Positions 34,612 to 61,102 of a DNA stretch of 63,035 nucleotides are shown here, one piece after another. Where the stretch lies: contig JBIKWQ010000008.1 of NCBI GenBank assembly GCA_044356215.1, forward strand, positions 1-63,035. Reading direction: 5' to 3'. Each line of letters opens with the position of its first letter. Within the stretch, counting starts at the first letter, position 1. Made by a program: the position numbers and the translations under genes. Source of the stretch: Bdellovibrionota bacterium (GTDB lineage Bacteria > Bdellovibrionota_C > UBA2361 > OMII01). The notes beneath the pieces are model-generated. The model was not told the origin of the DNA and did no database searches. It was given only the letters and a program-made list of their open reading frames with translations.

Positions 34612-36663
34612 ATGTCGCGATCTAAAACCCGGTCACCGCTCCTCTTTGCTATCCGCTTAGCCCGAGTCCTCGGGGCTGTGATCTTATTTACGCACGTTGC
34701 CACCCAGGTCACGCCCGCTCACGGAGAGCCAAATAAGGTCCCTGATAGCGGAAACAAGCTCGACGTTGTTCTGATGCTCGATTCTTCAGGAAGCATGCTT
34801 AAAACCGACCCCAAAGGGCTGCGGTATGAGGGCGCTAAGATACTCTGCTCATTTCTGACCGAGAGCGATCGTTTGGGTATAGTGCAGTTCTCTGGTGACG
34901 CCAAGGTCGCCCAGGAGCTTCAGTATTTCTCCCCGTCAAAGACCGATGAGATCCTGGGGCGTATTAAGGCAATTCCGAATGAGGGGCTCTTTACCGATAT
35001 CGCGCAGGGGGTCAAGGTTGCCGCCGAGATGCTCGACAAAGAGCCGCGAACTGATACGCAGCGTTTGATAGTGCTTCTATCGGATGGCAAGAGTGAGCCT
35101 GATCCAGCGGTCAGCCCAGCTTTCGCGCGCACACTGCAGTTGATTCATGAGATCCTGCCGGACATAAAGTCGCGTGAGGCTAAGATCTTCACACTCGCTC
35201 TAAGCGCGGAGGCTGATCGTGGTTTTCTGGCTGAAATCGCCACCGCTACCGATGGATTGTCGTGGTATACGCAAACTCCAGAGGAGATTCATACCTCCTT
35301 TGGCGAACTTTTTTTAGCCGTAAAGCGACCGCAGGTGGTCTCTCAGACCGGACGCGGGTTCTCAATCGATTCCGATGTCGACGAGGCGACTTTTTATATC
35401 AACCACGAGCCAGAGGCTAGGCTATCTCTTATCTCACCTAAAGACGAATCGATGACAGCCGAGAAACACCCCGATTACGTCACCTGGTTTACTGGACAAA
35501 ACTTCGATGTAATCACCGTAAAAGAGCCGGATTTGGGGGACTGGAGGGTTGTTGGCTCAACTCTTGAGGACGGCTTCGCCACGGTGCTAACCGATCTTAA
35601 GCTGCTGACTGATTGGCCGTTGGTTGTTCGCGCGGGGGACGAGCCGCTGGTGAAGGCGCGGTTATACGAGGAGAATAAGCCGATCACCCTGCCTGAGATG
35701 GGGGGTGTTGTTAAGTTTGGCTTTCAGATTATCCCAACAGATAAGGTCTCTAAGCCGATTATGCAGGAGGCGCTCTACGACGATGGAACCCACGGCGATG
35801 TGGTCGCGCAGGATGGAATCTACTCATCAGCGACTGGGGCGATCGCCACAGGGGCGTATAAGCTCGTAGTGGTAGCTAAAGGCCCAACATTTCAACGGAG
35901 TCAGCAGATCCCCTTTACCGTTCGTCCGCGCCTTGTGACTTTGGAGTTGCGTCATCCAAGCGAGGTATTTAAAGAGGAGCTTCAACCAGCGGAGAATTCA
36001 GGTGATGAAACGAGTGAGTTCGTCGTTTCAGTAAGCAAGGAATCGGCTGCTTTTAAATCTTTTGATGTCTTGCTGGTCGCGTTGACGGAAGATCGTGAGA
36101 GAATTGACCTAACGCTTAAACGTGTCTCGCCCAGCGCACATGAGTACACCGCCTTAGCCGATCAGCTTCCAAAAGATGGGCGCTACAAAGTTAAAGCGGT
36201 TCTAACTGGCCGAGATAAAAAAGGTGAGAGAATTGAGGCCGAAAGCTCGGTAATCTCGATTAATTTTAAATCGAGAACGCCACGAGATGAAGCCGAGATC
36301 GGCCACGCCCGCCGCAAGCATGGTGAGTCCGAGAAGAAACCGGCGGAATCAGGGGAATTTCCGCTAAAATCTATACTTGTGGTAACAGCGCTTAATCTAA
36401 TCGGATTCGGCGCCGCCTTTAAATTATTGAAAAAGAGAGCCAAGACCGGTACCGCGGGCAGACAGAGATATCTTCCGCCAGCGCAGATTTTGGAGGCGAT
36501 TGAGGTTCTTGAGCAGCGAGCACTGGCGAAATCTATGTCTCTCGATGATTCGATCTTTAAGTTAATCGAGTCGGCTGGAGTTCTCGATGGAGAGAACGAT
36601 CCAGTGGCGGCGCAGGGCCAGGGCGAGGCGGCGAGTAGCGAATCTGGCGAGGGGGCGGTTTAG
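34612..36663 (+). CDS. exported vWA-domain protein with choice-of-anchor-X-like motif and C-terminal TM
   Basis: MIDAS 'LDSSGSM', 'VLLSDG'; 'LYDDGTHGDVVAQDGIYS'; TM near the C-terminus. Confidence 0.85.
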   Translation: MSRSKTRSPLLFAIRLARVLGAVILFTHVATQVTPAHGEPNKVPDSGNKLDVVLMLDSSGSMLKTDPKGLRYEGAKILCSFLTESDRLGIVQFSGDAKVAQELQYFSPSKTDEILGRIKAIPNEGLFTDIAQGVKVAAEMLDKEPRTDTQRLIVLLSDGKSEPDPAVSPAFARTLQLIHEILPDIKSREAKIFTLALSAEADRGFLAEIATATDGLSWYTQTPEEIHTSFGELFLAVKRPQVVSQTGRGFSIDSDVDEATFYINHEPEARLSLISPKDESMTAEKHPDYVTWFTGQNFDVITVKEPDLGDWRVVGSTLEDGFATVLTDLKLLTDWPLVVRAGDEPLVKARLYEENKPITLPEMGGVVKFGFQIIPTDKVSKPIMQEALYDDGTHGDVVAQDGIYSSATGAIATGAYKLVVVAKGPTFQRSQQIPFTVRPRLVTLELRHPSEVFKEELQPAENSGDETSEFVVSVSKESAAFKSFDVLLVALTEDRERIDLTLKRVSPSAHEYTALADQLPKDGRYKVKAVLTGRDKKGERIEAESSVISINFKSRTPRDEAEIGHARRKHGESEKKPAESGEFPLKSILVVTALNLIGFGAAFKLLKKRAKTGTAGRQRYLPPAQILEAIEVLEQRALAKSMSLDDSIFKLIESAGVLDGENDPVAAQGQGEAASSESGEGAV

Positions 36664-36665
36664 TT

Positions 36666-37334
36666 ATGTGGCTAACAGTCCTATTACTGGCTTTGATTCA
36701 ATCTGGATTAATTGCGCTCTTTATATTTAACCGCGCCCGCCACGCCAACGACGATGTGGTCGCGCAGTTTGAGTTGATTAAGGACGAGGTTCAGCAGAAG
36801 CGCGATCTGTGGGCGAAGGTTGAAGCGGTACAGGGTGAGATAGCTGAGGATGGTGACTTTAAGAGAGCCGCGCGCGATTTTATCGGAGCGCGTGAGTCGC
36901 TTAAGGTAGAGCGGGGCCGAGTTACGTTGACGCAGGCTGAGATCGAGGCGCTTGAGGTCCGTATGCGTGAGCTTGAGGAGATCGGCCGCGAGTTAGAGGC
37001 GAGCCAGACTGAGACGAAAGAGGAGTTAAAGATCCTGCGCCGCAAAGAGGACGATATGCGTGACAAGAACAACTTGTTACGCGGGCAGATAGCTGATTCA
37101 TTAGCCAAGATGGATCTGCTGATTGAGGAGATCGAGCTCACGGCGCAGATGCAGAACCAGGTGGCTGCGATGAAGTCCGAACTCCTCCGGTCTGAAGAGA
37201 AGATCCAGACGATGCTCAATCAGATCCAGGACACAAACGAGCAATATTTCAATTTAAAACGGCGATATGACGCGCTCGATGTGGAGTACGCCCAGCTCTA
37301 TCAGCAGCTGACGGAGCAGTCGAGTAAGGGGTAA
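36666..37334 (+). CDS. membrane-anchored coiled-coil protein
   Basis: N-terminal TM followed by E/L/Q/K-rich heptads; starts 2 bp after the vWA gene. Confidence 0.75.
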   Translation: MWLTVLLLALIQSGLIALFIFNRARHANDDVVAQFELIKDEVQQKRDLWAKVEAVQGEIAEDGDFKRAARDFIGARESLKVERGRVTLTQAEIEALEVRMRELEEIGRELEASQTETKEELKILRRKEDDMRDKNNLLRGQIADSLAKMDLLIEEIELTAQMQNQVAAMKSELLRSEEKIQTMLNQIQDTNEQYFNLKRRYDALDVEYAQLYQQLTEQSSKG

Positions 37335-37400
37335 TTGGGGGGCGTTCGCTATTGCCCACAAGTAGTGTTTGAGAGGGGAGGAGAGCAGACAATTGTGTTT

Positions 37401-37700
37401 TCCTCCCTATCCGTAACATCTAGAGTGGAACCACAGAGGAACGCAGAGGGGGAGATGTTGCTTCATCTTGGGCCGGTAGAATCTTTGGGTCCTAGCCTCT
37501 GTGATACTCTGTGTACCTCTGTGGTTTCTCCCCTATCCGTAACATCTAGGATTGAACCACAGAGGAACACAGAGGAACGCAGAGGGGGGATGTTGCTTCA
37601 TCTTGGGCCGGTAGAATCTTTGGGTCCTAGCCTCTGTGATACTCTGTGTACCTCTGTGGGTTCTCCCCTATCCGTAACATCTAGGATTGAACCACAGAGG
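37401..37700. repeat. tandem array 1 of ~126-135 bp hairpin unit (~2.3 copies)
   Basis: CCCTATCCGTAACATCTAG linker at 37405, 37531, 37666; arms AACCACAGAGGAAC(A/G)CAGAG ... CTCTGTGTACCTCTGTGG. Confidence 0.92.
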
Positions 37701-37867
37701 GACCTCTTTGTAAAAAGTAGTTCCGATAATCTTTTGTGCTTTTGCCCACCTACACCATTTTCATCCTCCTTAACTGCTCTTTTTAGGTTCAAACTGATTC
37801 ATTACGCATCATATTGCCGATAAGAGAGCATAACCCTCATAAGGGGTAGCCTAGACTCAGATACTTT

Positions 37868-39049
37868 ATGCTTCGACTGGTGGTGTGTTCAGCGCTGTTT
37901 TTGCTCTCCCTCTCGGGGCCGCTAGCGGCTCAGGAGGAATCGGAGGCGGCTGCCCCAAATCCAGCTAACGATCTACGTGGCTTCTGGAACACCGATGATG
38001 CCAGAGATTGGACCCGTGCCGTTCGACCGAACTCATCGCGCGAGGTGGTGTATCACGACTATCCGGTGATGCTCGACAAGGTCAAAGAGGACACTAAGGC
38101 AGAGGAGGCGCGCCGGGCCGCCGAAGCTAAGATCCCAGTTATCAAAGAGGACCTAAGCCAAGGGGGAAAACCCGCAAAATCCCCGGAAAATAGCGAGTTT
38201 TCACCTAAGGAAGACCCGCAGAAGCAGGAGCCTAATCAACCACGAGTCTCAGCCACCCCTTTGTCACGTGAGCAGATTTTGGCTAAGTTTGGGTCGCCTG
38301 ATGAGCCGCAGGTAATTCGGGCGCAGAAGGACGCACCACCAGCGATGCAGGGTTTGTTTGAGGCGTTGAACAGCAACGACAAGCAGCTTGCCTTCCAATA
38401 CGCCATGGCATTGGCGCGCAGGCAGGTTGAGATGCAGAAGATGGTCGGCAAGGCGACCGACTATCAGATTTTGGCGATGGAGGCGATCGGGATCAGACCA
38501 GCTAACCCCATGCCGGATGACGGCGAGCCGATCGACCCGAGTCTGGCTGAGGTCAAGGAGTACTATCAGGAGGCGCGCCAGAAGGAGCTTAAGAAATTGG
38601 CGCCTGGGGTGGATGTAAATCTTGAGCAATATGAGGTAGATAGCTCCAAAAAGCCGGCTCGCGAGAACGTGCGACAGGCGATCCCAGCGGACCCGAACGG
38701 AAACGTTAAGATATTGATTTTCTTAGATGAAACCAATGCGGAGGCGGCTAAGATCGCAGAAAGGATAAAACCCCTAAGGAATCGCTATGCAGGGGACGCC
38801 AAGTTCGCGCTTTTTGGGCTAACTAAGCGAACTTACGAGCTTTCTGGCCTAAAGAAGCGGGCTGCTGAGATCTCCTTTCCATTTCCGCTAGTTAGTGGTG
38901 AAGCACTTGCGCTTGACCTGCGGATAAGGGGTTATCCCACAACTGTCTTTGTCGCTGCCAGCACAAAGGAGACTTACCGGGTTGATGGGGTTCCGAGTGT
39001 GGAAGAGATGGATAAGACGATACGAATTATGCGCGGGGGACAGCAGTAA
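37868..39049 (+). CDS. exported protein with C-terminal thioredoxin-like fold lacking CxxC (TraF/TrbB-like)
   Basis: Signal peptide; 'KILIFLD', 'LRIRGYPTTVFV' cis-Pro motif; first gene of an operon ending in a traG-like gene. Confidence 0.5.
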   Translation: MLRLVVCSALFLLSLSGPLAAQEESEAAAPNPANDLRGFWNTDDARDWTRAVRPNSSREVVYHDYPVMLDKVKEDTKAEEARRAAEAKIPVIKEDLSQGGKPAKSPENSEFSPKEDPQKQEPNQPRVSATPLSREQILAKFGSPDEPQVIRAQKDAPPAMQGLFEALNSNDKQLAFQYAMALARRQVEMQKMVGKATDYQILAMEAIGIRPANPMPDDGEPIDPSLAEVKEYYQEARQKELKKLAPGVDVNLEQYEVDSSKKPARENVRQAIPADPNGNVKILIFLDETNAEAAKIAERIKPLRNRYAGDAKFALFGLTKRTYELSGLKKRAAEISFPFPLVSGEALALDLRIRGYPTTVFVAASTKETYRVDGVPSVEEMDKTIRIMRGGQQ

Positions 39050-39051
39050 AG

Positions 39052-40785
39052 ATGACTCTTCTAAAGAACAGATCTTTAGGTTTGGCTGTGATTAACTTCG
39101 GCGCGAAGACACTAAAACTCTGCCTGGCTGTGATGGTTTGCGGGTTGATGATTGGGGTTGGGGGGGTGGTTGGGGAGCCAAGCGTGCCGAATCCAAGTGC
39201 GGCCGTGTCCGCGGGAGGATCGAATGGGCAGACAGGAACCGTGGCTGAGGGCGATGATTCGGATAACGCTGGTAATCCTTTTGATAAACCTCGCAACGAG
39301 ACTGAGGTGAATTTCCGAGGAGTTGAGGGGGAGCGTGCAATGGCAGACTCCAAGGATGCGCGCAAGATGATGCACTCGCTTATAACTTCACAATTCACAA
39401 CCTTTTTTCAGACCATAACGATGGTGGAGAACGCTGCCGCATTCGGTCTCGCTAACGGATTCAATGCATCTTCAAATCTGATGCAATCGATCTACAGCAG
39501 TGCCACCCTCAACCATCAATTAAGGGGGAGACCTGAAACGATTCAGCAATTGGAGTTTCAAAACAGAATCTATGATAAGTTGGAGGAGGATAAGAAGCAC
39601 CCAAACGCATGGGCGCTGGGCATAATGCGGGCAACGGGGGATAGTTTTCAGCGAGCTGACGATGATAAAAGGTTTTTTATCCCCGAAGATTTAGTGGCCG
39701 CAGAAGATCCAAAGCTGCAAACGATCAGCGCAGGCGAAGCAATTACACTAGAAGAAGGTAAAGATAAACGCGAAGACACAGAAACCCTCAAACTAGCAGA
39801 AACCCTGCTCGCGGATGTAACGCCTGCAGCTGGCGAATCTAACCCAGCTCCAGGCACAAAAGATTACGCACTCGCTTACTTGGGCGAAATTGAGTACACA
39901 AAAAAGGCAACTGGACCTAAAATAATTTCGACAACGAAGGCAGTTGCGGCAAAAAAAGTTGGTCAAAAAGAGGTTGCGGAAGCTGCTGGTACAACAACGA
40001 CGGTAGACATCCGTGGCTTAGAACTCCGCACCGCGGAGCTTCAGAAAAAGATTTGGGACGCCTTTAGCGTTGAACTCTTGAAAAAATACTGCGAATTCAA
40101 GACTCAGGACGAGAACTACAGACAGGATCCATTCAACAAAAGTTTGCCGTCGAAAAAAGTTACTCCGGAGATCCTAGAGAAGGCGTCTTCAAAGACCATC
40201 AAGCTAACGATTAACCTAGTTGATCAGATATTTAAGGTCTATGCATCGCAAAGGCCGGCTGATCCTAGCAAGCCAACTACGATCAATTGTAATGTTTTCA
40301 AAAATCATCAAGAGGCGATGCCAATGAAGTATGAGGAGCTGGGAGAAGGGAAGGGGCCGGATTGTATCGGTGCACCTAAGAGCTGCAACCAGAACAAGTG
40401 GCTTTTCCGGCTGACTCAGATGCTTGCAAAGGATCGTGCAATAAGTGAATTCAAGTTAACCTACGAGAAGCTTATTAATGGCGCGTTGTCGCAAAATCCG
40501 ATCTTTCTGGTGAAGGTCCATGAGTATATGTGCGCGAGCCTAAAAGCCGAGGGAGGAGCGGCTTCCGATCTCAGTATGTGCGATCCGGCGGTATGGCTTG
40601 AAGCTCTAGCTGTAGAGAATCGCCAAAAGTGGGTGCGTCAAGTCGAAGAATTCGCTAAATGGGCCCAAAATATCGGTGGCGCCTCAAATCTCGGATTCGC
40701 TGGTTCTAATTCTATAGCGCAGGCCGGAGGTAATGTAGAGGGTATGTCTTCTCCTCCAGCCGGCGGTGGAGGAGGTTCAGAATAG
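39052..40785 (+). CDS. exported Cys-containing protein in the TraH position
   Basis: N-terminal hydrophobic segment, several C-terminal Cys; lies between the thioredoxin-like and TraG-like genes; no diagnostic motif. Confidence 0.4.
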   Translation: MTLLKNRSLGLAVINFGAKTLKLCLAVMVCGLMIGVGGVVGEPSVPNPSAAVSAGGSNGQTGTVAEGDDSDNAGNPFDKPRNETEVNFRGVEGERAMADSKDARKMMHSLITSQFTTFFQTITMVENAAAFGLANGFNASSNLMQSIYSSATLNHQLRGRPETIQQLEFQNRIYDKLEEDKKHPNAWALGIMRATGDSFQRADDDKRFFIPEDLVAAEDPKLQTISAGEAITLEEGKDKREDTETLKLAETLLADVTPAAGESNPAPGTKDYALAYLGEIEYTKKATGPKIISTTKAVAAKKVGQKEVAEAAGTTTTVDIRGLELRTAELQKKIWDAFSVELLKKYCEFKTQDENYRQDPFNKSLPSKKVTPEILEKASSKTIKLTINLVDQIFKVYASQRPADPSKPTTINCNVFKNHQEAMPMKYEELGEGKGPDCIGAPKSCNQNKWLFRLTQMLAKDRAISEFKLTYEKLINGALSQNPIFLVKVHEYMCASLKAEGGAASDLSMCDPAVWLEALAVENRQKWVRQVEEFAKWAQNIGGASNLGFAGSNSIAQAGGNVEGMSSPPAGGGGGSE

Positions 40786-40790
40786 TAAAT

Positions 40791-43700
40791 ATGCTCGAGA
40801 CAGTTATTAACCTCTGCCTAAACCAAGTTGTGAGCATTCTGGCGCTCCTTCTGGAGCTCTCTATCTCGGGGTTAAGCTTCACGGTGCAAGAGTGCTCTTG
40901 GGAGAGCTGTCCGGGAAGCGCGTATAACTCAATCACGGCGGCGTGGGCTAATATCGGTTACATGACGCACGCTGATTTCGTGCACTTTGTTTGGAACACT
41001 AAATTCGGTGTTTGGGCGGCGGTGCTGTATGTTCTCGGCGCCACGGGCGCCTTGATCTCAGTCTCGATCAATCAACCACCACGGACCTATATGTGGTTCT
41101 TTATCGGTCCAGCGATCTACTCATTCTTGGTTGGAACTCCGACCACAGTTCAGGGGGTTGCTTGGCGCGTGGCGGGGCAAGATATGGGTATGGAATCGGT
41201 CTGGCGCGATGCCGAGACCGGACTAGCGAATACGTCGCTAGTTAATGACCTCGGTATAGAGGTTTACCGTAATCGGGGGCCAAGTGGTGAATATCAGGTC
41301 GCTTGGATGATGGTTTTTCTGGATGGGATTTTCAGCGAAGCGACTAATAACCTGATCAGTTGGGTGGGAATTCAACGGAGAGAGGGAGATGGTGGTGTCG
41401 ACACCAATCGTTTCAAGAAGGAGGATGGTGGAGCTGGGGGTGAGGATCTCGGAACAGGTGCGCAGGCTGAAAGGGAGCCGTGGTTCCTCTTGGCTAACTC
41501 AAAATGGGGGATGATCGAGAATATAGTCGGAGCGACAGCGCGCGATCCAGATGTGCGCGATGCCTTGGTAACCTTTCTCGCTTCTGAGTGCGGAGATCAA
41601 TTTAAGCGGGGAGTTCACTCGGGGTACTACTCAGCGGCCTCACAGTCGCGTGGAGCGACGACAGTTAAGACAGTCTTCATCGGGCAGGACGGTGGCGGGG
41701 CGAGTGGAGAGGACGGTGATGAGCAGTCTGGGAAAAACTATCAGGACTTCGTCAGGGGGATGGATACAGAGGCGATCCCCACTCCAAGGTCGATAATCAG
41801 ATTGTTTAACAGCCCGGGAACCAACGGTTCGTTTCGTAACTTTAGCCCTATTTTTAGTGACGAGAAGATCTATAGCCGTTACTCTGAGATCCTCTGCTCC
41901 GAGTATTTATACACCATTATTCAAGCGATGCGTTGGGAAGCCGGTCACGCGTACCACCAACTTGTAAGGAGCTTCCCTGATGGATTCCAGAGCGAGGAAT
42001 CCGCCCTATCGACCCTCTACTACGGCTGGAATCTGCGTAAAAACGAAAGCAGTGTGATGATCAAGGGTGAGGAGATCAAATCATACACCAGGCACCTTAT
42101 CTTAGCGCACTTAGTCCGTAACGAATTGATGTACGCGCCACAGATAACTGAGAGTGGTCAGCGGTTCGCTCCATCCGAGCAGGTGCTTAACTTCTCGGAA
42201 TCTTATGTCCGCACGCAGGGCTCGCGGGCGAAGTACGGAGAGCTCTATAACTGGGCAGTTATGATGCCGCAAGTTCAGGGGATCCTGACCTATCTGGTAT
42301 TAATCGGATATCCATTCGCCGCGATGTTGATGGTTATCCCTGGATATTGGAAAGCATTCTTTACCTGGATCTCGTTCTTCGCGTGGGTGAAGTTGTGGGA
42401 TGTTGGGTTCGCGATAGTCCACACATTAGAGCGCAGCGTTTGGGCGATGATCGGAAACCACAGCGCGATGGCGAAGGTAGGTCGCAGGTTGATCGTAGCG
42501 GCGGAGAAGGGAAATTCAGATGTTAACGTGACATGTCCAGAAGATGGTGGGATGGGGATACCTGGAAAATTATCGCAACTCTGCGCGGTACCAGAAGTGA
42601 AATCAGCGGGTGGTGACCAGAATCAAATTGACGCGTGGTACACACTCGACCAGATCTTAGTGGTCGCGGGAAGTTTAGATCTCGATTTATCCAACGGATA
42701 TTACATCTACATCATGGCGGCGCTTTACTTCGCGGTGCCGACGGTGACAGGACAGTTAGTATTAGGAGCGAAGGCCAGCTTAGGTGGAATAGCGACGCAG
42801 GCGATGGGCCAGTCAGCGGGAGAGGCCGGAGGCGCTTCGAAGTCTGGAACCGTTGGAGAGGGTACGAACCGGCTGATGACGAACCAGGCATCGATGAACC
42901 AAGCCGCAATGGCCAAGAGTTACAGACAGTCAGGCTTAGCGCTAAGGAGCTTAGAGGCTCAGAACGCCGCCAGTGATATGGATGTGTTGGGGGCGGAGAT
43001 TGGGATTAATAAGGGGGCGGCGGGAGCTGCTGCGGATGCGATCAAAGCCACGATGGGATCGAATGAGGCCTTTGGTGGCGCACAGCAAGCGATTGCGCAA
43101 AATCGGGAGTTTGCCGTAGCGCCAGCTAAGAGGGCGATAGGGAAGATGAGAGACGCCATTATGGGTCGCTCTAAGGGCCAGATCCAGGCTCAATCGGGCG
43201 TGTCATTATCTTCTGGGGTGGATAGCGGAGGAGATGATGATTCGGCATCTTCTGAGGGGGATAGCGGAGGAAATGATGATTCTCCATCGTCTATAAAGGC
43301 AGGAGATCCGCCGCAATTAAAGGGCTTGAGAAACTCTATTAAAGGAAGAAATAAAGCTAGAAGAAGCAATAATGGGGGAACTGGCGGCAGAGTCTTAGAT
43401 GGAGTGAATGACGCAGCGAACCTTGGATTAGCTATTTTTGGGCAGGCTACCGACGGCAAGCTAGCGCAGACGGCCCTATCCAACCTATTTGCCCAGCAAT
43501 ACGCCGCGGCACTCGGCTATGGCTCGGCCTACGGTCTCGATGCTGGGATGCAGAAAAGTGGGCTCGATCTATATAAATCGGGAATGCAGGCCTACGGCCA
43601 GAACTTGCAACGCGAGGCGGATTTTGAGGCTAACATGGCCGCCTGGGATGCCAGGAACGCCTTCGCCACACATATCTCTGGAACTGCCGGAGTTGCAGGT

Positions 43701-44141
43701 ATAAACCCAGGAAGCCTTGCGCCAGGCGCTAAGCCAACGGATATGGGTGGACTCGCGGCGTCCGGCGCCCTTGGATCGAAGGCACGAGAGGCCTCCTACT
43801 ATTCTATGTTCGGATATAACGACGGGATCAGGCAGATGTTCGCCCGTAGCCGAGGTAAGGGTGGTCAGGCGTATATGAATCATTTTAACCCATTTGGAAG
43901 TGTCTTCGAGTATGAGGGCGCAATGATAGCAGCTGGTATCGCTGATTTTATGAAGACTGGTGCTTACTTAACACCTCAACCGTGGCAGGAAATGAAAGAA
44001 GGTACTCAGAGAATAACTAGCGGAGAAGATGTCGCAAGGACAAACCAGGTGATAGAACAAATTCAACAACAAGTAGTCCAGCAGGGACAGAATAACAATC
44101 AAAATGTGCCAACAAACAACGATCGAGGGGAACAAAAATAA
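40791..44141 (+). CDS. TraG-like (F-type T4SS mating-pair stabilisation) membrane protein
   Basis: 1116 aa; TraG_N-like 'MPQVQGILTYLVLIGYPFAAML...FFTWISFFAWVKLWDVGFAIV'; N-terminal TMs, periplasmic Cys, long Gly/Ala/Ser-rich C-terminus. Confidence 0.65.
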   Translation: MLETVINLCLNQVVSILALLLELSISGLSFTVQECSWESCPGSAYNSITAAWANIGYMTHADFVHFVWNTKFGVWAAVLYVLGATGALISVSINQPPRTYMWFFIGPAIYSFLVGTPTTVQGVAWRVAGQDMGMESVWRDAETGLANTSLVNDLGIEVYRNRGPSGEYQVAWMMVFLDGIFSEATNNLISWVGIQRREGDGGVDTNRFKKEDGGAGGEDLGTGAQAEREPWFLLANSKWGMIENIVGATARDPDVRDALVTFLASECGDQFKRGVHSGYYSAASQSRGATTVKTVFIGQDGGGASGEDGDEQSGKNYQDFVRGMDTEAIPTPRSIIRLFNSPGTNGSFRNFSPIFSDEKIYSRYSEILCSEYLYTIIQAMRWEAGHAYHQLVRSFPDGFQSEESALSTLYYGWNLRKNESSVMIKGEEIKSYTRHLILAHLVRNELMYAPQITESGQRFAPSEQVLNFSESYVRTQGSRAKYGELYNWAVMMPQVQGILTYLVLIGYPFAAMLMVIPGYWKAFFTWISFFAWVKLWDVGFAIVHTLERSVWAMIGNHSAMAKVGRRLIVAAEKGNSDVNVTCPEDGGMGIPGKLSQLCAVPEVKSAGGDQNQIDAWYTLDQILVVAGSLDLDLSNGYYIYIMAALYFAVPTVTGQLVLGAKASLGGIATQAMGQSAGEAGGASKSGTVGEGTNRLMTNQASMNQAAMAKSYRQSGLALRSLEAQNAASDMDVLGAEIGINKGAAGAAADAIKATMGSNEAFGGAQQAIAQNREFAVAPAKRAIGKMRDAIMGRSKGQIQAQSGVSLSSGVDSGGDDDSASSEGDSGGNDDSPSSIKAGDPPQLKGLRNSIKGRNKARRSNNGGTGGRVLDGVNDAANLGLAIFGQATDGKLAQTALSNLFAQQYAAALGYGSAYGLDAGMQKSGLDLYKSGMQAYGQNLQREADFEANMAAWDARNAFATHISGTAGVAGINPGSLAPGAKPTDMGGLAASGALGSKAREASYYSMFGYNDGIRQMFARSRGKGGQAYMNHFNPFGSVFEYEGAMIAAGIADFMKTGAYLTPQPWQEMKEGTQRITSGEDVARTNQVIEQIQQQVVQQGQNNNQNVPTNNDRGEQK
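43208..43285 (+). repeat. in-frame 39-bp tandem duplication inside the traG-like gene
   Basis: ATCTTCTGGGGTGGATAGCGGAGGAGATGATGATTCGGC / ATCTTCTGAGGGGGATAGCGGAGGAAATGATGATTCTCC. Confidence 0.85.
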
Positions 44142-44423
44142 AAAACGACGGTAGCCGGAATAAATGAAACTGCTCACCCGAAAAAGGCACCCCAGACTGG
44201 GGGTGACTAGAGAGAAGATCCGTCAGAACAGCTTATTTAGCGCTGCAATTACTGCCGGTCAGTAGTTGCGAATAAATTAACCTATTTAATTTGATCAGTC
44301 ATAACCACCAACTTCCCCCTCCCCCCAACAACATCTTTAAGATACGATTTACCCCTCAGCACTATCCCCGATAAGGCGGCAGTTTCTGAGCTTATCGACT
44401 AGGGGCTTTCTGGTATCTCGATC

Positions 44424-45113
44424 ATGTCTACGATTAAACTTTTAGGGTCGGTCTTCTCAGTAACAGGTAGAGGGGTGGTACGTGGCGGCCGCGCTGTATT
44501 TTGCGGAGCTGCGCTTTATACCGTGACCCTCTGCTTATCTGGCTGCGAATACGAGTGGCGAGAAGATCGCGGCGACGCAGCGCCGTATCAGGTCTCTAAG
44601 TCGGAGGAAGCTGCCGAGCAGGAAGCCCCGCTTAAGCAGGTGCGGGTCGAGCCAGTTCAGACGGAATTTAAGCCCGTTATAGCCCCGGGCCGAGATATAT
44701 CCGGACAAGCCGAGCTGCCACCTAAGGCTCGTAAGATTAACTTAAGTGAGTTGGGAGAGAGCGGGGCGTTGATGGTATCAGCGAACGCGCCAACTGGTGA
44801 TCTAGGATTATCTTTTGATGAGCGTGAGGATACCTTGTCCAAGTCAGAAGGGGTTAATCCTTACAGGATAACTTTTGAGTTTAAAGATACCAAAACGATA
44901 AAGGCCATCAGGGTTCTCTCGACCTATTCAGATTATAGCTGGGCCTTCGCGGCAGAAGGGTCAGAGAGGTTGCTGGTCGATACAGTGATCGACGGAGCTT
45001 GGTCAACAATGACCTGGCCCGAGGGCCTTAAGGTAAAGCGCTTCTATGTCGAGGTCTTAAGAAAACAACGCGACAACTACGTGCATGTTAATGAGGTTGA
45101 GGTGTATGAGTGA
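44424..45113 (+). CDS. lipoprotein with discoidin/galactose-binding-like C-terminal domain
   Basis: Lipobox 'LSGC'; C-terminal 'VHVNEVEVYE'. Confidence 0.6.
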   Translation: MSTIKLLGSVFSVTGRGVVRGGRAVFCGAALYTVTLCLSGCEYEWREDRGDAAPYQVSKSEEAAEQEAPLKQVRVEPVQTEFKPVIAPGRDISGQAELPPKARKINLSELGESGALMVSANAPTGDLGLSFDEREDTLSKSEGVNPYRITFEFKDTKTIKAIRVLSTYSDYSWAFAAEGSERLLVDTVIDGAWSTMTWPEGLKVKRFYVEVLRKQRDNYVHVNEVEVYE

Positions 45114-45119
45114 GGTTGA

Positions 45120-46982
45120 TTATTTCGCTAGCTGCAGTAACCCTGTTGCCTTTTCGCCCATCCAAAAAATGTAGGAAGGAACCTGCGGCAAGTAGGGAAG
45201 AGCAGCAACACAAGCTAATACGTAGGACGTGCCTTGAGCTAGCCCAATACAGCCATTTACCCAGCCGGTCCATCTTTCGAGTAGTCGGTTAGAGCACTCA
45301 TTACCCCTTTCGTCGCGGTGCAAGGCATCGCTGTAGTAGCCAATAGCCTCCTCCATATTTTTCTTGGCGTTATTGTAAGTGGTGTCATCTTTAGGTCTGA
45401 CCAAGTTCCCCCATTTTCCTAATAAATCACACAGTGGACTGGCAAGGTGAGTTCTGAGGAGATAGTCCGGCTGGTTGCTTTGATTGCCTCTGTCTCGTCG
45501 ATTCAGGGTCACTACATCGTCGCCGAGGGTTTTCATCAGCTTTAATGCCACTATGCAGGATATAAGCAAGTCATCCGGATTGTTCGCGGTACCCCCGGCG
45601 CTTTGCATCAGGAAGTTCCATGCATCCTTCACATTATTCTCAGTCCTCAAATCTTTTCGAGAGATCCATATTGAGGCTCCTAGAGTGCCAAATAGTTTGG
45701 CATGAAATGATGAGAGTATGCTCGCCACGGGTGCCGGAAGAGAGCTTACAGCAAAAACACCTAAAGATAATGCCGCAACGGACCATGCTTTAAGAATAGA
45801 AGCCGATGGTGAATTTAAACTTTTATCGATTACTTTCGGAGCTCCGCCTGCATTAGCTGACTCGTACGAGACCTTTATAGATCGGGAAGTAAGAGCCAAG
45901 CTTTTCAGGTCAACATGCCCCAGATAGTGGATATTTAAAAGCGCAAGATCAGGATCTAGATTCTCAAGATGCTGTTGAATCTCGCTAATACCCAGACTCG
46001 ATTTTACAGCTCCAGACTTAAGAGCTTGTGGAGCCTTCTCGTCAGCGAGGTACTTGAAGCGATGGAACTGTTGCTGCATATCTGCCACGGAAGTGAGCAG
46101 GCCCCGAATCTCATCTTGTGATGTTGAATCAAGCGCGGAAAAAGATCCATTTTTCCCCGCATAATTATACCTAATTTTTGCGCCGATCTCCTTTCTAAGT
46201 TTCGGGGCAATTTCCGAACCCGGATCGCACAGACCACGTAAAATACTCGCGGCCAAGAGGACACGTTCTAGGTAAACATTTTGGAAGTTCGCCATATGGT
46301 CGCTATCTATTGGCAAAGTTCCCTGATGATTCTCGAGGTCGAGGGAATATTTATGCAGTGATGAACTAATCTCCTTGGCGAGAGAGGTAGCATTAGTGAC
46401 CTGCGTTTGATCAATAGAGAGTCCACTCTGAACCTTCTGGGCAATCTCAGCGAGGTCTTCCATTTTTGTTCTTAAGACGTCGTCGTCTATACAGTCGGCG
46501 AGGTGGTTGGTCAGCTTCTGATCTTGCTGTTGTTGCGGCAGCAGCTGTTGCTGAGTCTGCTGCTGCGGCTGTGGCAACGGTTGTGGTTGTTGCTGTTGCT
46601 GTGGTTGTTGAGTCCCACTTCCTAGGGAAGAATTGAGACTACCAATCGCCCCTGCTATTTGTGAGCTAGACTGAGCGATGGAATTTTTAATTTCTTTTAA
46701 TTCGCGCACAATACTGCTTCCTAGTCCGCTATCGGTCTCCGCGGGGAATTTCTCACGTAGCTCTTGTGGGAAACCTGCTCCGACAAGTATGCTACTGCAT
46801 TGAGAATTTAGGTGTTGAGAGCTAGTGACTATTATGCTTTTTTGCAGGTTAGTGAGACTCTCCGCATTGCTAGCGCTGGTTGATGCGTCTGTCGTGGAAG
46901 AACTGTGATAAAGCTCAGGAGAATTCGTGTTGTTGACATTATTTGTGTCCGGCGCCTTCCCGTCGCTCCTTTTGATTCCCAT
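45120..46982 (-). CDS. orphan protein with Ser/Asn-rich N-terminus, poly-Q/P tract and hydrophobic hairpins
   Basis: 620-aa ORF; 'QQPQQQQQPQPLPQPQQQTQQQLLPQQQQ'; two C-terminal hydrophobic regions. Confidence 0.7.
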   Translation of the reverse strand: MGIKRSDGKAPDTNNVNNTNSPELYHSSSTTDASTSASNAESLTNLQKSIIVTSSQHLNSQCSSILVGAGFPQELREKFPAETDSGLGSSIVRELKEIKNSIAQSSSQIAGAIGSLNSSLGSGTQQPQQQQQPQPLPQPQQQTQQQLLPQQQQDQKLTNHLADCIDDDVLRTKMEDLAEIAQKVQSGLSIDQTQVTNATSLAKEISSSLHKYSLDLENHQGTLPIDSDHMANFQNVYLERVLLAASILRGLCDPGSEIAPKLRKEIGAKIRYNYAGKNGSFSALDSTSQDEIRGLLTSVADMQQQFHRFKYLADEKAPQALKSGAVKSSLGISEIQQHLENLDPDLALLNIHYLGHVDLKSLALTSRSIKVSYESANAGGAPKVIDKSLNSPSASILKAWSVAALSLGVFAVSSLPAPVASILSSFHAKLFGTLGASIWISRKDLRTENNVKDAWNFLMQSAGGTANNPDDLLISCIVALKLMKTLGDDVVTLNRRDRGNQSNQPDYLLRTHLASPLCDLLGKWGNLVRPKDDTTYNNAKKNMEEAIGYYSDALHRDERGNECSNRLLERWTGWVNGCIGLAQGTSYVLACVAALPYLPQVPSYIFWMGEKATGLLQLAK

Positions 46983-47577: not shown

Positions 47578-49419
47578 ATGACAGATTTTCTAACGCCTCA
47601 ATCGGCAACCCCGAGCCAAAACCCTGCGATTGGAACCGATTCAGAAAATAATCCTCTGAAGGCCACTAAAGGACCGAGCATGGCACAGTGCGCGACTGCC
47701 TCATCAATCTCCCTTGGAAAATCGCTCGGCCAGGCATCCTCCTTTTCAGGCGTCGACTGGTATCGATCATCAGAGCTTTCATTTAAGGAAGTGATAGAAG
47801 GGCAGCGGTTGACCCCAGATCAAGAACAGAAACTTAAAGATATTTGGACTCAGGCGCGTACCGCGGATGACAAGAATGTTGGAGTCTACCTCAAGAGTTT
47901 AATCCCCGACCTCCTTGAAGAAAGAGCCGAGGGTCTCAATTCACTTCATGAATTGGCGACTGGAAAGATGATTATCGAAGGCCAAATCTCTGAGATGAGG
48001 CGTAAGGAGTTCTTGGCCGAGTGGGTGGCAACCGCGGCGGATCGTGTGTTACGTCTACAGGGCCACACAGACTTCTGTACCAATACGGACCAGGCAAAGC
48101 ACGAATTTTCAGTGGTTGAGTGGATGAAATTGGGGAATGGGCTTTACTTGAAGGGTGAGTGCACCCAGCCTAATGGCCGACAGATGTTTTTGGGTCATGG
48201 CGCTACCTTAGAAGAGAGGCTGGAGGACGTCAGAGAGCGAGCGATGCCCTATATCACCATGAAGACCGGCATGGGATTTAATGATAATGAGCAGCCTAAG
48301 GAGCTAATGCGACGAATGGGATGTGCACAACCCAATCCATTGGTAACTCTGGCCCTGTTGGAGCTGAAGGAGCAGAACTCAGCCGGAGCCAATCTGGGTG
48401 GCGGCCAGGAGGAGCATGAGTGGAGTCTCTCCGCTTCTGAGTTTGGAGATTATGAGACTTATGTAGCGAGAAAGGACGCTCGGATCCCGCTCAACAAGCA
48501 CGGCCTTGCGGTTCGGCCAGGGGAGGGGAGCACCACTTCAGTCACGCCGCTGGATTATGTAGGCCTTGATCTTGATCGCCAGTGGAAAGATCTGCAAGTA
48601 GTTCGACCTAAGACTGCAGAGGATACCGTCGCTATGTTCAGTGACTTGGCGAAGCAGAGGCAGTTACTTGATGAAAACAAGCGTCTTATTGGTACTCAGG
48701 TTGTCACTCGTTGGGGCGACCCTCAGCACGACCCCAACAAACAGAGTGAACATGGGTACCATCATACGACTGTCGTCAATAAAATCACCGATGAGAGGGG
48801 CGAGCCCTTTTATATCCTGCTAAATCCGGCTGGCGATTATATCAATCGACAAACAGGCTCAACATACAAATATGGTACTCAGCTGGGAGACACTAAGGGC
48901 AGTGGCATGAAGTGGACCCAATTAAGCCACGGATTAGTCCAGGTATCAGCAAAAGATTTCGAGGCTAATTTCGAGCGAGTTACAGTCCCGCTTATGCATG
49001 AGAAGAGTTCGTATTATGAGGGGAAAAAGGGCTTAATACTGACCAAAACTGGATTAAAAGAGTTAGAGTCGGGAGCTAATATCGGCAAAGAGATCCGTAT
49101 ACCTGGAACACCACCGCCTGTACCTGTAGGGGACGTGTTCATCATGCACGAGATTAAACTAGCTGATCCCAGCCCTAGTACGGGATCTCAGGTATCGTCG
49201 CTGGGTAAAGTTCTTGATGCGGTTCTACTTGCGCAGGTTAGCGCGAACAAGCGCATCGGGTACTTGGTGGTAAATCCGCAAGCTTATAATTCAGGATCAA
49301 CCGACCAATACGAGAGGCACCTAAAATTAGTGTCGAAATATGAGCCTTTCGCAGAGAGATCTGAGAGGCGGAGAAAGCGCAAAGAACAAGAAGAGCAGAA
49401 TCTTTCAATACCTATCTAA
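47578..49419 (+). CDS. orphan protein, putative papain/calpain-like cysteine protease
   Basis: 'LQGHTDFC' ... 'GYHHTTVVN' ... 'YILLNPAG' give Cys-His-Asn order; S/T/P-rich N-terminus. Confidence 0.45.
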   Translation: MTDFLTPQSATPSQNPAIGTDSENNPLKATKGPSMAQCATASSISLGKSLGQASSFSGVDWYRSSELSFKEVIEGQRLTPDQEQKLKDIWTQARTADDKNVGVYLKSLIPDLLEERAEGLNSLHELATGKMIIEGQISEMRRKEFLAEWVATAADRVLRLQGHTDFCTNTDQAKHEFSVVEWMKLGNGLYLKGECTQPNGRQMFLGHGATLEERLEDVRERAMPYITMKTGMGFNDNEQPKELMRRMGCAQPNPLVTLALLELKEQNSAGANLGGGQEEHEWSLSASEFGDYETYVARKDARIPLNKHGLAVRPGEGSTTSVTPLDYVGLDLDRQWKDLQVVRPKTAEDTVAMFSDLAKQRQLLDENKRLIGTQVVTRWGDPQHDPNKQSEHGYHHTTVVNKITDERGEPFYILLNPAGDYINRQTGSTYKYGTQLGDTKGSGMKWTQLSHGLVQVSAKDFEANFERVTVPLMHEKSSYYEGKKGLILTKTGLKELESGANIGKEIRIPGTPPPVPVGDVFIMHEIKLADPSPSTGSQVSSLGKVLDAVLLAQVSANKRIGYLVVNPQAYNSGSTDQYERHLKLVSKYEPFAERSERRRKRKEQEEQNLSIPI

Positions 49420-49498: not shown

Positions 49499-50611
49499 CT
49501 ACCCAACAACCCTCAAACCAACCGATCTAAAGCTTGTATACTTAGTGCTTAGAACCTCGATGTAACATCGATCGGACGATCGATGAATTATCTCGGCTCC
49601 ATACAAGATCGGTCCACTCGGTGAATCGCGCCTCATCGGTAAGATTCCTGAATCGATCGCCTTAATATCTGCCATCACGATCCGCTGACTCGGCCACGAT
49701 CTGTTCCAGGAGTTTATAAAGCGCTGAATCTCGCTCTCCATTACCTGGGGTTTTTGGGGGGAATCTAAGTGAGGACTTGAACACGGATAATACCATGTGC
49801 CGATAGTGGTGAATTCCCCGCGCGGAACCGCGAAAAAAAGTCGCCCATCGTCACTCTGAGTAGCGGTGGCATAAGTGGGATCGATTAGACGATTGATCGT
49901 TACATTAAATCCTATGCACCAATCAGGTCGTGTCCCGCGTAGCGACTCAGGGATCTCAACCGAACTTAACCACGGACCGAGCGTGTTGACCACTCTCTCG
50001 GCTAACAACGATTGACCTGTGCTTGTGGTGACAACAAAACCATGAGCGCCCCGCTCAATCCGCGTAACCATAGTGGATTCTCGTATCTCTCCACCTTTGG
50101 TTGTTATCTCCGTGGCGGCACACTTGGCTAATCCCTGTGGATCCGTCATTACAAGGTCGTGCCAACAGAGGGCTCCGTTTGGGGCGTAATCGCTCAAGGT
50201 GGGTGATAGCTCCGCTAAAAGCTCCTTGGAGTTTAATACCCTGGGTGGGTTTAACTTTGAGCGAGCGGCGCGCATAGTGGCACCGTAAAGGATCGCCGCC
50301 ACGCTTACTGGAATCCTACTCTTTAATCCAAAGCGGGTAAGGGGCATTAGACAAGCTAGTGGTTTTACGTATTGGGAGTAGTCAGTGGCGACAGATGTCT
50401 GATCTCCCAGCGATCGGAAGACGCGAGGCAGATCAAACTTCTGCAGGTAACGAAATCCTCCGTGGATAATGCGTAGCGTATTATCTGATGTAGCCGAAGC
50501 TATCTCGCGAGCCTCAAGAATAACGGGCCGCTGCCCAGATCGAGCCGCGGCCAACCCAACGCCCAACCCAGATATTCCGCCGCCAATAATGATGATGCTC
50601 TTTTTGTTCAA
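49499..50611 (-). CDS. FAD-dependent oxidoreductase, glycerol-3-phosphate dehydrogenase-like
   Basis: 'IIIIGGGISG', 'SATSDNTLRIIHGGFRYL', 'VVNTLGPW', 'KYTSFR'; start reassigned to TTG 50611 because the upstream extension is largely MITE sequence. Confidence 0.8.
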   Translation of the reverse strand: MNKKSIIIIGGGISGLGVGLAAARSGQRPVILEAREIASATSDNTLRIIHGGFRYLQKFDLPRVFRSLGDQTSVATDYSQYVKPLACLMPLTRFGLKSRIPVSVAAILYGATMRAARSKLNPPRVLNSKELLAELSPTLSDYAPNGALCWHDLVMTDPQGLAKCAATEITTKGGEIRESTMVTRIERGAHGFVVTTSTGQSLLAERVVNTLGPWLSSVEIPESLRGTRPDWCIGFNVTINRLIDPTYATATQSDDGRLFFAVPRGEFTTIGTWYYPCSSPHLDSPQKPQVMESEIQRFINSWNRSWPSQRIVMADIKAIDSGILPMRRDSPSGPILYGAEIIHRSSDRCYIEVLSTKYTSFRSVGLRVVG

Positions 50612-50626
50612 GGCTTTACGTTTTTG

Positions 50627-50788
50627 GGGGGCTTTGCAGTTTTTTATCACCACAGAGGACGCAGAGGACACAGAGAACGGCCATTTTATGGGCAATTAAG
50701 GGGTTTTCTCTGTGTCCTCTGCGTCCTCTGTGGTAAAAATATTTTACTAATTGCCTCAGCAACTTACCACAAACACTGCGACGCCCTG
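50627..50788 (-). mobile_element. MITE copy 2 (162 bp, reverse orientation)
   Basis: Reverse complement of copy 1; end ACTGCGACGCCCTG; ACGTTTTTG at 50618-50626 and 50789-50797. Confidence 0.9.
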
Positions 50789-55644: not shown

Positions 55645-56102
55645 AGGGAGTATAATTTAATCCTGAGCTGGCAGACTCTTTGGGCCCTAGCCTCTGTGAT
55701 ACTCTGTTTACCTCTGTGGTTTCCTCCCTATCCGTAACATCTAGGATTGAACCACAGAGGAACACAGAGGAGGGAATATGATTTAACCCTGGGCCGGCAG
55801 AATTTTGGGTTCTGACCTCTGTGATACTCTGTGTACCTCTGTGGTTTCCCCCCTATCCGTAACATCTAGGATTGAACCACAGAGGAACACAGAGGAGGGA
55901 ATATGATTTAACCCTGGGCCGGCAGAATTTTGGGTCCTGACCTCTGTGATACTCTGTGTACCTCTGTGGTTTCCTCCCTATCCGTAACATCTAGGATTGA
56001 ACCACAGAGGAACACAGAGGAGGGATGTTGCTTAATCTTGGGCCGGCAGAATTTTGGGTTCTGACCTCTGTGATACTCTGTGTACCTCTGTGGTTTCCTC
56101 CC
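55645..56102. repeat. tandem array 2 of 125-bp hairpin unit (~3.6 copies)
   Basis: CCCTATCCGTAACATCTAGGATTGAACCACAGAGG at 55726, 55851, 55976; same family as 37401-37700. Confidence 0.95.
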
Positions 56103-59543: not shown

Positions 59544-59686
59544 AGGTGGGATACTATTACGTACAGCACTGTTACATGTAAATCCTATTTAGGGATTAAA
59601 CCCCGATAAACGTAAGCCATAGACGTCGATGAAATACGATTCTATACTCCCCACAAATCCTATGTAATGAGTCTTAATTTCAAACC

Positions 59687-60943: not shown

Positions 60944-61102
60944 GCTTAAAGCTTTCGGGGCGCTCGATCGTCAAGCTTTAGAACTAAAATTCGGGAGGGG
61001 GGGATCGGTAAATTTTGTTTAGCATAAAACAAGCGGGTCTAGTATTACACCAAATAGCGCGCGGGGTAAAATAGGAGATACGGATGCTTGGCAAAACGGG
61101 GC

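Follow-up and report, generated by a model that had tools for sequence, protein, structure and literature searches.

The F-type (MPF_F) type IV secretion systems (T4SSs) constitute the textbook conjugation machines of plasmids and of integrative and conjugative elements (ICEs). SXT/R391 and IncA/C elements are also carriers of the gene block traF-traH-traG, and in SXT/R391 this block lies apart from traLEKBV and traC. Here we describe a three-gene operon of comparable layout at positions 37,868 to 44,141 of a 63,035-nucleotide stretch of DNA from a Bdellovibrionota bacterium (GenBank assembly GCA_044356215.1, contig JBIKWQ010000008.1), the whole of which is called the window below. Its genes, termed A, B and C, code, respectively, for a TraF-like protein, a protein in the TraH position and a member of the TraG_N family. 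We consider it probable, at odds of roughly two to one, that A-B-C serves as accessory module to an F-like T4SS that has no relaxase, belongs to the host, is passed on vertically and has its genes split over the chromosome.

We place the operon with the F-type systems because its gene order is that of traF-(trbB)-traH-traG and because an F-type core is present in the same genome. This order, which a preliminary description of the DNA had named as conserved in F-type/SXT systems, was indeed seen in all four of the reference plasmids with these genes (F-like, Legionella, sphingomonad and Delftia plasmids). As in the MPF_F plasmids, a TraF-type thioredoxin-fold protein, a mid-sized exported protein and a large TraG_N protein with a long C-terminal extension are coded by tightly packed genes, with TraC, TraB, TraK, TraE, TraV and a TraD-type coupling protein in the same genome. 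Unlike in those plasmids, no relaxase, TraN, TraU, TrbC or recognizable TraH was found here, the genes are chromosomal, single copy and phylum-wide, and A and C of the window themselves lie below the family cut-offs.

Host-owned T4SSs that inject effectors are known from the P type (the rvh system of the Rickettsiales and that of Xanthomonas) and the I type (Dot/Icm). The rvh system is reported to be scattered and vertically inherited, and to have five tandem divergent VirB6-class paralogues of 674–1154 amino acids (aa) (PMC2653234). The system described here would resemble rvh in being host-owned and split into chromosomal islets, and in that some relatives of our bacterium have five tandem TraG_N paralogues (697–1156 and 614–1147 aa); it differs in that rvh is a P-type (VirB/D4) system of obligate intracellular alphaproteobacteria, whereas ours is of the F type and belongs to free-living lake bacteria. 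Another parallel is offered by the traN_S/traH_S/traG_S genes of Salmonella genomic island 1 (SGI1), for which a specific pairing of TraH with TraG is reported (PMC5389848). There, too, genes for mating-pore subunits stand separate from the remaining T4SS genes, and their products plug into that machine; in our lineage, B–C pairs are duplicated jointly. In contrast, SGI1 is a mobilizable island that remodels the machine of a helper plasmid, whereas the two loci described here are parts of one chromosome and one lineage, with a B that is not a recognizable TraH. The gonococcal genetic island is horizontally acquired, occurs in only part of the population and is relaxase-dependent, unlike the present genes, for which no relaxase family was found and whose distribution is lineage-wide. 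Its F-like T4SS with traF, traH and traG secretes single-stranded DNA (PMC4207684) and shares with the machine proposed here the use of an F-like T4SS for something other than plasmid conjugation.

The operon and its three proteins

The three open reading frames (ORFs) lie on the plus strand at 37,868–39,049 (A, 393 aa), 39,052–40,785 (B, 577 aa) and 40,791–44,141 (C, 1116 aa), with gaps of 2 bp and then 5 bp between them, exactly as the preliminary description had it. They are real genes rather than chance reading frames because their families recur in 99 (A), 72 (B) and 111 (C) of 124 related genomes, a set of species genomes from the phylum that spans 36 families and includes 73 genomes of high quality.

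The best-founded of the three assignments is that of C. Its hydropathy profile peaks at residues 5–31, 73–91 and 495–516, with further hydrophobic stretches up to about residue 665, and is followed by an Ala/Gly/Ser/Gln-rich extension (residues 670–1116); such a polytopic membrane domain with a long non-membrane C-terminal region is the layout expected of TraG_N proteins. In a six-frame search of the genome, PF07916 (TraG_N) matched residues ~469–546 of C (window positions 42,195–42,428, plus strand; model positions 307–383) with an E-value of 5.4e-5 and 22.8 bits, against a cut-off of 36.1. Among the candidates scored, 172 belonged to the wider family at E ≤ 0.001, a good number of them with a precomputed PF07916 label, and in an alignment of 35 rows (the window protein, 30 relatives and four ORFs from related loci) a TraG_N match at E ≤ 0.01 was obtained for 12 (best E 2.4e-6), no other family appearing. 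Paralogues within the phylum were reached with the C profile at E-values of 1e-24 to 1e-35, and two of these score 41.1 and 41.3 bits to PF07916, above the cut-off that C itself misses. A hidden Markov model of four plasmid TraG sequences also matches in-phylum paralogues, at about 1e-5.

Two further methods converge on the same family. We aligned each family profile by hhalign with those of 11 F-type families, which were represented by small alignments from six annotated plasmids (four sequences each for TraF, TraG and TraH). For C, only TraG stood out (probability 26.4%; next best family, 0.8%), with columns 487–540 against 335–389, the same transmembrane segment as in the PF07916 match. Language-model features of residues 1–700 fell on TraG_N clusters at 0.95, with 29 of 30 matches. 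This transmembrane core is also the part of C that is conserved in paralogues from other orders, and the C-terminal third is the least conserved part. By transitivity and by independent methods, rather than by its own score, C is thus solidly identified, at the level of sequence, as a divergent TraG_N-family protein, and what had been described as a TraG_N-like membrane segment in a TraG-like protein has gained a firm footing.

The product of A begins with a signal-peptide-like stretch; as residue 7 is its sole Cys, it has no CxxC motif. A word-based search recovered 75 relatives. The window protein, 34 of these relatives and three ORFs of related loci make up an alignment of 38 rows, in none of which CxxC is found. 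In the F system, TraF is without a redox-active CxxC, unlike TrbB/DsbC; among our reference sequences the motif occurs in 5/5 of TrbB/DsbC and in 2/4 of TraF, so that it does not define the family. The AlphaFold2 model of A has a C-terminal thioredoxin domain at residues 275–390 (pLDDT > 94), a helical region at ~134–244 and disordered linkers, and its best Protein Data Bank (PDB) matches by Foldseek are thioredoxins of the TlpA/ResA/DsbE type (E-values of 5e-6 and below). A single-sequence Pfam scan had yielded only a sub-threshold Thioredoxin_2 match (E 0.005). The exported thioredoxin-fold protein without CxxC that the preliminary description saw here is therefore borne out by signal-like N-terminus, model and alignment alike. 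Among the 11 F-type families, hhalign ranked TraF first for A (25.8%, E 7e-4, 94 columns, thioredoxin domain only), followed by TrbB/DsbC (3.4%) and TraW (1.5%). Because of its fold, the lack of CxxC throughout its family and the first rank of TraF among the 11 families, we regard A as TraF-like, a moderately supported assignment that combines the architecture of F TraF with a weak but specific profile signal; the fold and the ranking speak for the label originally given, whereas the curated TraF profiles are not reached.

B starts with a hydrophobic segment, consistent with export or membrane anchoring, and has eight Cys, six of them past that segment, in keeping with the exported, Cys-bearing protein of the preliminary description; C347 and C413 are invariant in 69 sequences. 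A word-based search found only three relatives; with an eight-sequence profile, 93 proteins were reached at E ≤ 0.001 among 1.84 billion representatives. Between loci, B retains 17–24% identity where C keeps 48–57%. Judged by these comparisons, B belongs to a small, lineage-restricted and fast-evolving family. Its AlphaFold2 model (pLDDT 76.8, pTM 0.71) has no match at E ≤ 0.001 in a Foldseek search of the PDB, and no TraH structure is among its PDB matches; the highest Z among 48,161 chains compared by VIA-align was 4.9, a value that common helical arrangements also reach, and no fold was assigned. The nearest clusters by language-model features bear the label 'TraW-like' (PF28212) on 13–45% of their members, at scores of 0.81–0.83, below the lead threshold, and hhalign gives 0.1–0.3% against the TraW and TrbC references. 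A complex prediction for A (residues 130–393) with B (residues 75–545), made with alignments, scored 0.05 against a mark of 0.32, a value that speaks neither for binding nor against it.

One or two in-frame stops (TAA or TAG) interrupt the B matches of three genomes of the same genus, at 59,609–61,312 of G091:C15, 2,556–4,274 of G076:C116 and 15,486–17,105 of G100:C64 (G, C and L numbers are our handles for genomes, contigs and loci). These could be sequencing errors, decay of a B copy or misjoined frames.

A second locus with an F-type core

In the window itself, none of the 43 ORFs scanned in Pfam (14 + 29) matched relaxase, VirB4/TraC, coupling-protein, integrase or transposase families, and no tRNA gene was found, in line with the isolated operon of the preliminary description. 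This isolation holds for the locus and not for the genome: contig C120 of the same genome codes for an F-type core with TraE, TraK, TraB, TraV and TraC plus a coupling protein. On one strand follow two small ORFs (120 and 131 aa), TraE, TraK, TraB, TraV, a 163-aa ORF and TraC (913 aa), and after TraC two small ORFs, an SH3-domain protein and an M23 peptidase; the divergent strand holds a 681-aa protein and the coupling protein (702 aa), for which SXT_TraD is the best model (8e-17). TraC scores 56–59 bits to PF11130 (cut-off 28.1) and matches the F-type equivalog TIGR02746 at 8e-61, well above its scores to the VirB4, TrbE and MPF_G models. Cut-offs are also exceeded for TrbI/TraB (56.5 bits against 35; TraB at 1e-12), TraE (25.8 against 24.8) and TraG-D_C (24 against 22); TraK and TraV fall below theirs but stand in the canonical order. 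Because TrbL/VirB6 (PF04610) is absent from C, from its family and from the genome by profile search, C is the only candidate for a polytopic VirB6-class subunit, TraG_N being a putative equivalent of VirB6.

Two flanking features of the core deserve mention. The SH3-domain protein and M23 peptidase downstream of TraC (L015, G000:C120, 12,605–14,180) may together act as the cell-wall-opening enzyme of the machine; in F-like plasmids, a lytic transglycosylase is coded in another part of the tra region. The 681-aa protein (L015, G000:C120, 2,291–4,336, minus strand) is co-oriented with the coupling protein, has a counterpart of 33% identity in G051 and has no family match in Pfam or NCBIfam; in MOBH plasmids, the relaxase sits in this place relative to traD.

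The distribution of both loci was then followed through the phylum set, whose related metagenome-assembled genomes are of lake origin. Among sequencing runs, 20 of lake or freshwater DNA were identified as carriers, and no RNA run is listed as one. TraC is present as a single copy in 121 of the 124 genomes (73/73 of high quality), with identities of 83–94% within the genus, ~65–74% within the order and 56–65% beyond; of the three genomes in which TraC was not matched, two have the coupling protein. The profile of C finds 111 genomes (70/73 of high quality), that of A 99 (61/73) and that of B 72 (44/73), the last almost all in the window's own order. A and C share a contig in at least 71 of the 99 A-bearing genomes, among the C matches listed and in assemblies that are fragmented, and wherever B was seen it lies between them. 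The order A-B-C recurs in seven related loci, often with the same chromosomal neighbors. Since TraC is near-universal and single copy with an identity that tracks taxonomic rank, and since the triad is widespread and syntenic, these sequence comparisons point to vertical inheritance of chromosomal genes rather than to a mobile element. Nor is the split over two sites an artefact of assembly: in the near-closed assemblies G011 (3 contigs) and G057 (5 contigs), the triad occupies another contig than TraC or is distant from it.

These data bear directly on the alternative that the genes belong to a functional or decaying conjugative element, an ICE or plasmid of the SXT/IncA/C type with a relaxase and an integrase too divergent to be recognized, which moves DNA between cells or secretes chromosomal DNA in the manner of the gonococcal island. 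Conjugation needs a relaxase, and neither PF07514 (TraI_2, MOBH), PF08751 (TrwC, MOBF) nor PF03432 (Relaxase, MOBP/Q) had a significant match in the genome, which is rated 96% complete; the search covered these three families, which leaves room for such a relaxase, and the 681-aa protein beside the SXT-TraD-like coupling protein might be one. Scattered genes are also no bar to this alternative, given that MOBH-type reference plasmids hold their tra genes in several separate blocks (in two of them, traF-traH-traG is absent from the 41–42 kb around traC). Against it stand, first, the single-copy TraC of 121/124 species with identities that follow taxonomy, where a mobile element would be patchy; second, the synteny of the triad with chromosomal neighbors, the flat GC content across the locus and a window without integrase, transposase or tRNA; and third, a tblastn search of 72,556 plasmids, in which C had no match at E ≤ 0.001 and B only nine weak ones at E ≤ 10, none of them on a tra gene. 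We consider a conjugative element quite improbable, and DNA export by a fixed machine would in any case overlap with the host-owned T4SS that we prefer. Thus, with no relaxase, integrase or tRNA in the window and no MOBH, MOBF or MOBP/Q family in the genome, the genes do not appear to be mobile. The picture of a chromosomally scattered, domesticated F-type apparatus, drawn earlier from the window alone, has gained from the core on C120, from the absence of the three relaxase families and from the near phylum-wide presence of both loci; the patchy distribution or complete ICE that would have spoken for mobility was not seen, with C in 111/124, A in 99/124 and TraC in 121/124 genomes.

Relatives of the two loci show how their parts have multiplied. 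In L002, L003 and G100, B and C are duplicated as a unit to give A-B-C-B'-C', which suggests that they form a cognate pair. In another order, five tandem TraG_N paralogues of 697–1156 aa occupy positions 43–17,781 of L025 (G014:C2), preceded by one thioredoxin-fold A-like gene and a 785-aa gene that resembles B only faintly (E 8.6e-5); a second array of five (614–1147 aa), likewise in another order, lies at 616–14,089 of L026 (G011:C1). Finally, G051, which is from another family and has an ordinary A-B-C triad on a different contig, shows an insert between the coupling-protein operon and the core operon (L024, C17, 11,105–16,251, minus strand). It consists of a TraU-like gene (28.4 bits, cut-off 26.5), two other genes and a TraG_N-like paralogue of 705 aa, and is immediately upstream of the core operon. 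Since a TraG_N-like gene adjoins the core operon there, the TraG_N family is physically tied to a T4SS in this lineage.

A proposed host-owned machine and its alternatives

We propose that A, B and C form one operon for a periplasmic and inner-membrane accessory module of a T4SS that is coded at two or more chromosomal sites. C would supply a polytopic inner-membrane subunit of the TraG_N type (VirB6 class), which is missing from the core locus. The N-terminal two thirds of C, which are conserved, would form the channel or the pilus base, and its variable, low-complexity C-terminal third would reach into the periplasm or towards the target cell; for the C-terminal part of F TraG a role in mating-pair stabilization has been proposed. 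A would serve as a redox-inactive thioredoxin-fold assembly factor, like TraF of F, and B, in the slot of TraH, as a disulfide-bonded periplasmic partner that is specific for its cognate C. Given that no relaxase is recognizable, that the system is fixed in the lineage and that its TraG_N and B components diversify, the machine most likely serves the cell itself, by passing protein (or DNA) on contact to prey or host cells or by attaching through a pilus, and not plasmid transfer.

Several observations weigh against this proposal, and the first concerns B. In hhalign, the 69-row alignment of B reaches just 0.9% with TraH, the best of the 11 families being TraU at 1.2%, and a G-C-G-G-I-D block near the N-terminus of 4/4 TraH references (taken from the alignment of these four sequences, not from a curated definition) has no equivalent in B, where GCGG occurs in 0/69 members. 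B might still be a true, extremely diverged orthologue of TraH, in which case the operon would be a plain traF-traH-traG; this idea is nested within, and does not compete with, that of an accessory module. Its place between a TraF-like and a TraG-like gene, its export, its Cys residues and its size (the four TraH references have ~460–500 aa) would fit, and the duplication of B–C pairs recalls the pairing of TraH with TraG in SGI1, as told in the accessible part of that paper (PMC5389848). The low hhalign value and the missing block argue otherwise, as do the family searches: no TraH or other T4SS family was matched in B, in 33 of its 93 relatives (Pfam) or in the 69 aligned members (NCBIfam), and PF06122 (TraH) had no match in the genome and none above the cut-off in the 124 genomes of the phylum. 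We therefore hold orthology with TraH to be doubtful. Within the reach of a four-sequence TraH reference, B is best described as a TraH-position protein that is not demonstrably TraH; the TraH label has found nothing beyond position to commend it, much as the preliminary description itself had cautioned. A weak TraH match in a relative (L016 in G083, 19.1 bits) was dropped from consideration, as the proteins of the triad or its neighborhood do not match that locus.

The second group of observations concerns A and C, as every sequence link of the window's own proteins to the Tra families is weak. A reaches no curated Tra-family cut-off, with neither a PF13728 nor an NCBIfam TraF (TIGR02739/02740) match, and the sole PF13728 match of the genome lies outside A (E 0.06). 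C reaches none either, its hmmscan being empty at E ≤ 0.01 for Pfam and without a match in NCBIfam, and the profile matches of A to TraF and of C to TraG are short, with probabilities of ~26% against references of only four sequences. Third, TraU, TraN and TrbC (PF06834, PF06986 and PF09673) were, like TraH, not found in the genome. The F system needs these four proteins for pilus assembly, and without them the machine may work quite differently from that of F. Fourth, the co-occurrence of triad and core says little, since each of them is found almost throughout the phylum. Lastly, in G058, a genome of 2.3 Mb in a single contig with a completeness rating of 82%, the A-B-C triad is intact (C1, 148,416–154,052) and no match to TraC or the coupling protein was obtained; either part of the genome is missing from this contig, or a triad can be kept where there is no core.

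The same observations lend themselves to a different explanation, in which the triad is an envelope module unrelated to T4SSs that acts by itself, for instance in envelope biogenesis, adhesion or the handling of surface proteins. A would then be a thioredoxin-like protein of the periplasm, B a secreted, Cys-rich protein and C a large membrane protein that keeps only an ancestral membrane core of the TraG_N type. B without Tra homology, the sub-threshold similarity of the window's A and C to Tra families, the distance of the triad from the core and the case of G058 would all suit such a module, and the tandem fivefold TraG_N paralogues away from the core in other orders could signal a new function. 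Yet the gene order copies that of traF-traH-traG, the T4SS core has no other VirB6-class subunit, and in G051 TraG_N-like and TraU-like genes are joined to the core operon. To our knowledge, moreover, TraG_N and TraF-type proteins are known only as parts of T4SSs. On balance, we judge an unrelated envelope module to be improbable and prefer the accessory module of a split F-like T4SS.

A bolder form of that preferred explanation is tentative, and we would sooner bet against it than for it: a lake lineage of the rank of a phylum might have turned an F-type conjugation machine into a permanent organelle coded by chromosomal islets, with the triad as its target-facing end, where the variable C-terminal part of C and the TraH-replacing B diversify, as B–C pairs and five-gene arrays, to recognize or penetrate the envelopes of different prey or hosts. 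If true, this would be the F-type counterpart of the rvh system of the Rickettsiales and, among F-type T4SSs, the first one devoted to attack on other bacteria or to epibiosis. Even short of this, an F-type machine as a core trait of 121/124 species would extend the domestication of T4SSs to the F class; a literature search of incomplete coverage found no description of these bacteria as having an F-type T4SS among their core traits. The lineage would also offer a natural experiment on which F parts are dispensable, with TraU, TraN, TrbC and TraH gone or replaced and the TraF-like and TraG_N proteins kept, and it would indicate contact-dependent interaction with other cells in abundant uncultured lake bacteria.

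Chromosomal surroundings of the operon

The neighbors of the triad are ordinary chromosomal genes, among them those for a class II aminoacyl-tRNA synthetase, the penicillin-binding protein PBP1A, a cyclophilin, a PNP oxidase, SURF1 and a PALP/ACT enzyme. Directly upstream of A lies a dispersed intergenic repeat (37,335–37,867), for which Tandem Repeats Finder (TRF) gave a period of 135 bp, 2.0 copies and 96% matches; by blastn, copies of the 135-bp unit occur on at least 15 contigs of the genome, with a second array at 55,657–56,102 of the window. A 162-aa ORF upstream of A (37,335–37,823) is probably this repeat read in frame and not a gene. Downstream, 47 bp past the stop codon of C, inspection of the sequence revealed a GC-rich hairpin (44,188–44,205) as a possible end of the transcription unit; a pattern scan reports it on the minus strand only, and in that scan the counts of promoter-like and terminator-like sites over 37,300–44,450 were not above those of shuffled sequence.

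On the far side of the repeat, which stands between it and the triad, is a two-gene unit (34,612–37,334) for a 683-aa exported von Willebrand factor A (VWA) protein, in which TIGR03503-like and choice-of-anchor-X segments are combined with a membrane anchor at the C-terminus, and then a 222-aa membrane-anchored coiled-coil protein. We considered these two genes as members of the operon and rejected them, as they are not found beside the triad in related loci and the dispersed repeat intervenes.

Downstream of the triad, a gene at 44,424–45,113 (D229) codes for a probable lipoprotein with a lipobox-like LSGC motif and a weak APC10/discoidin-like match, and one at 49,499–50,695 for an FAD-dependent (DAO) oxidoreductase. 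Both adjoin the triad in L002, L003, L007 and L008, and D229 does so in L006 as well; these two genes are the neighbors often retained with A-B-C and mark a conserved chromosomal context. Between them lie two orphans without a family match: one protein of 620 aa (45,120–46,982, minus strand), which has a hydrophobic segment and a tract rich in Gln and Pro, and another of 613 aa (47,578–49,419, plus strand) with weak relatives downstream of the triad in L004 and L006.

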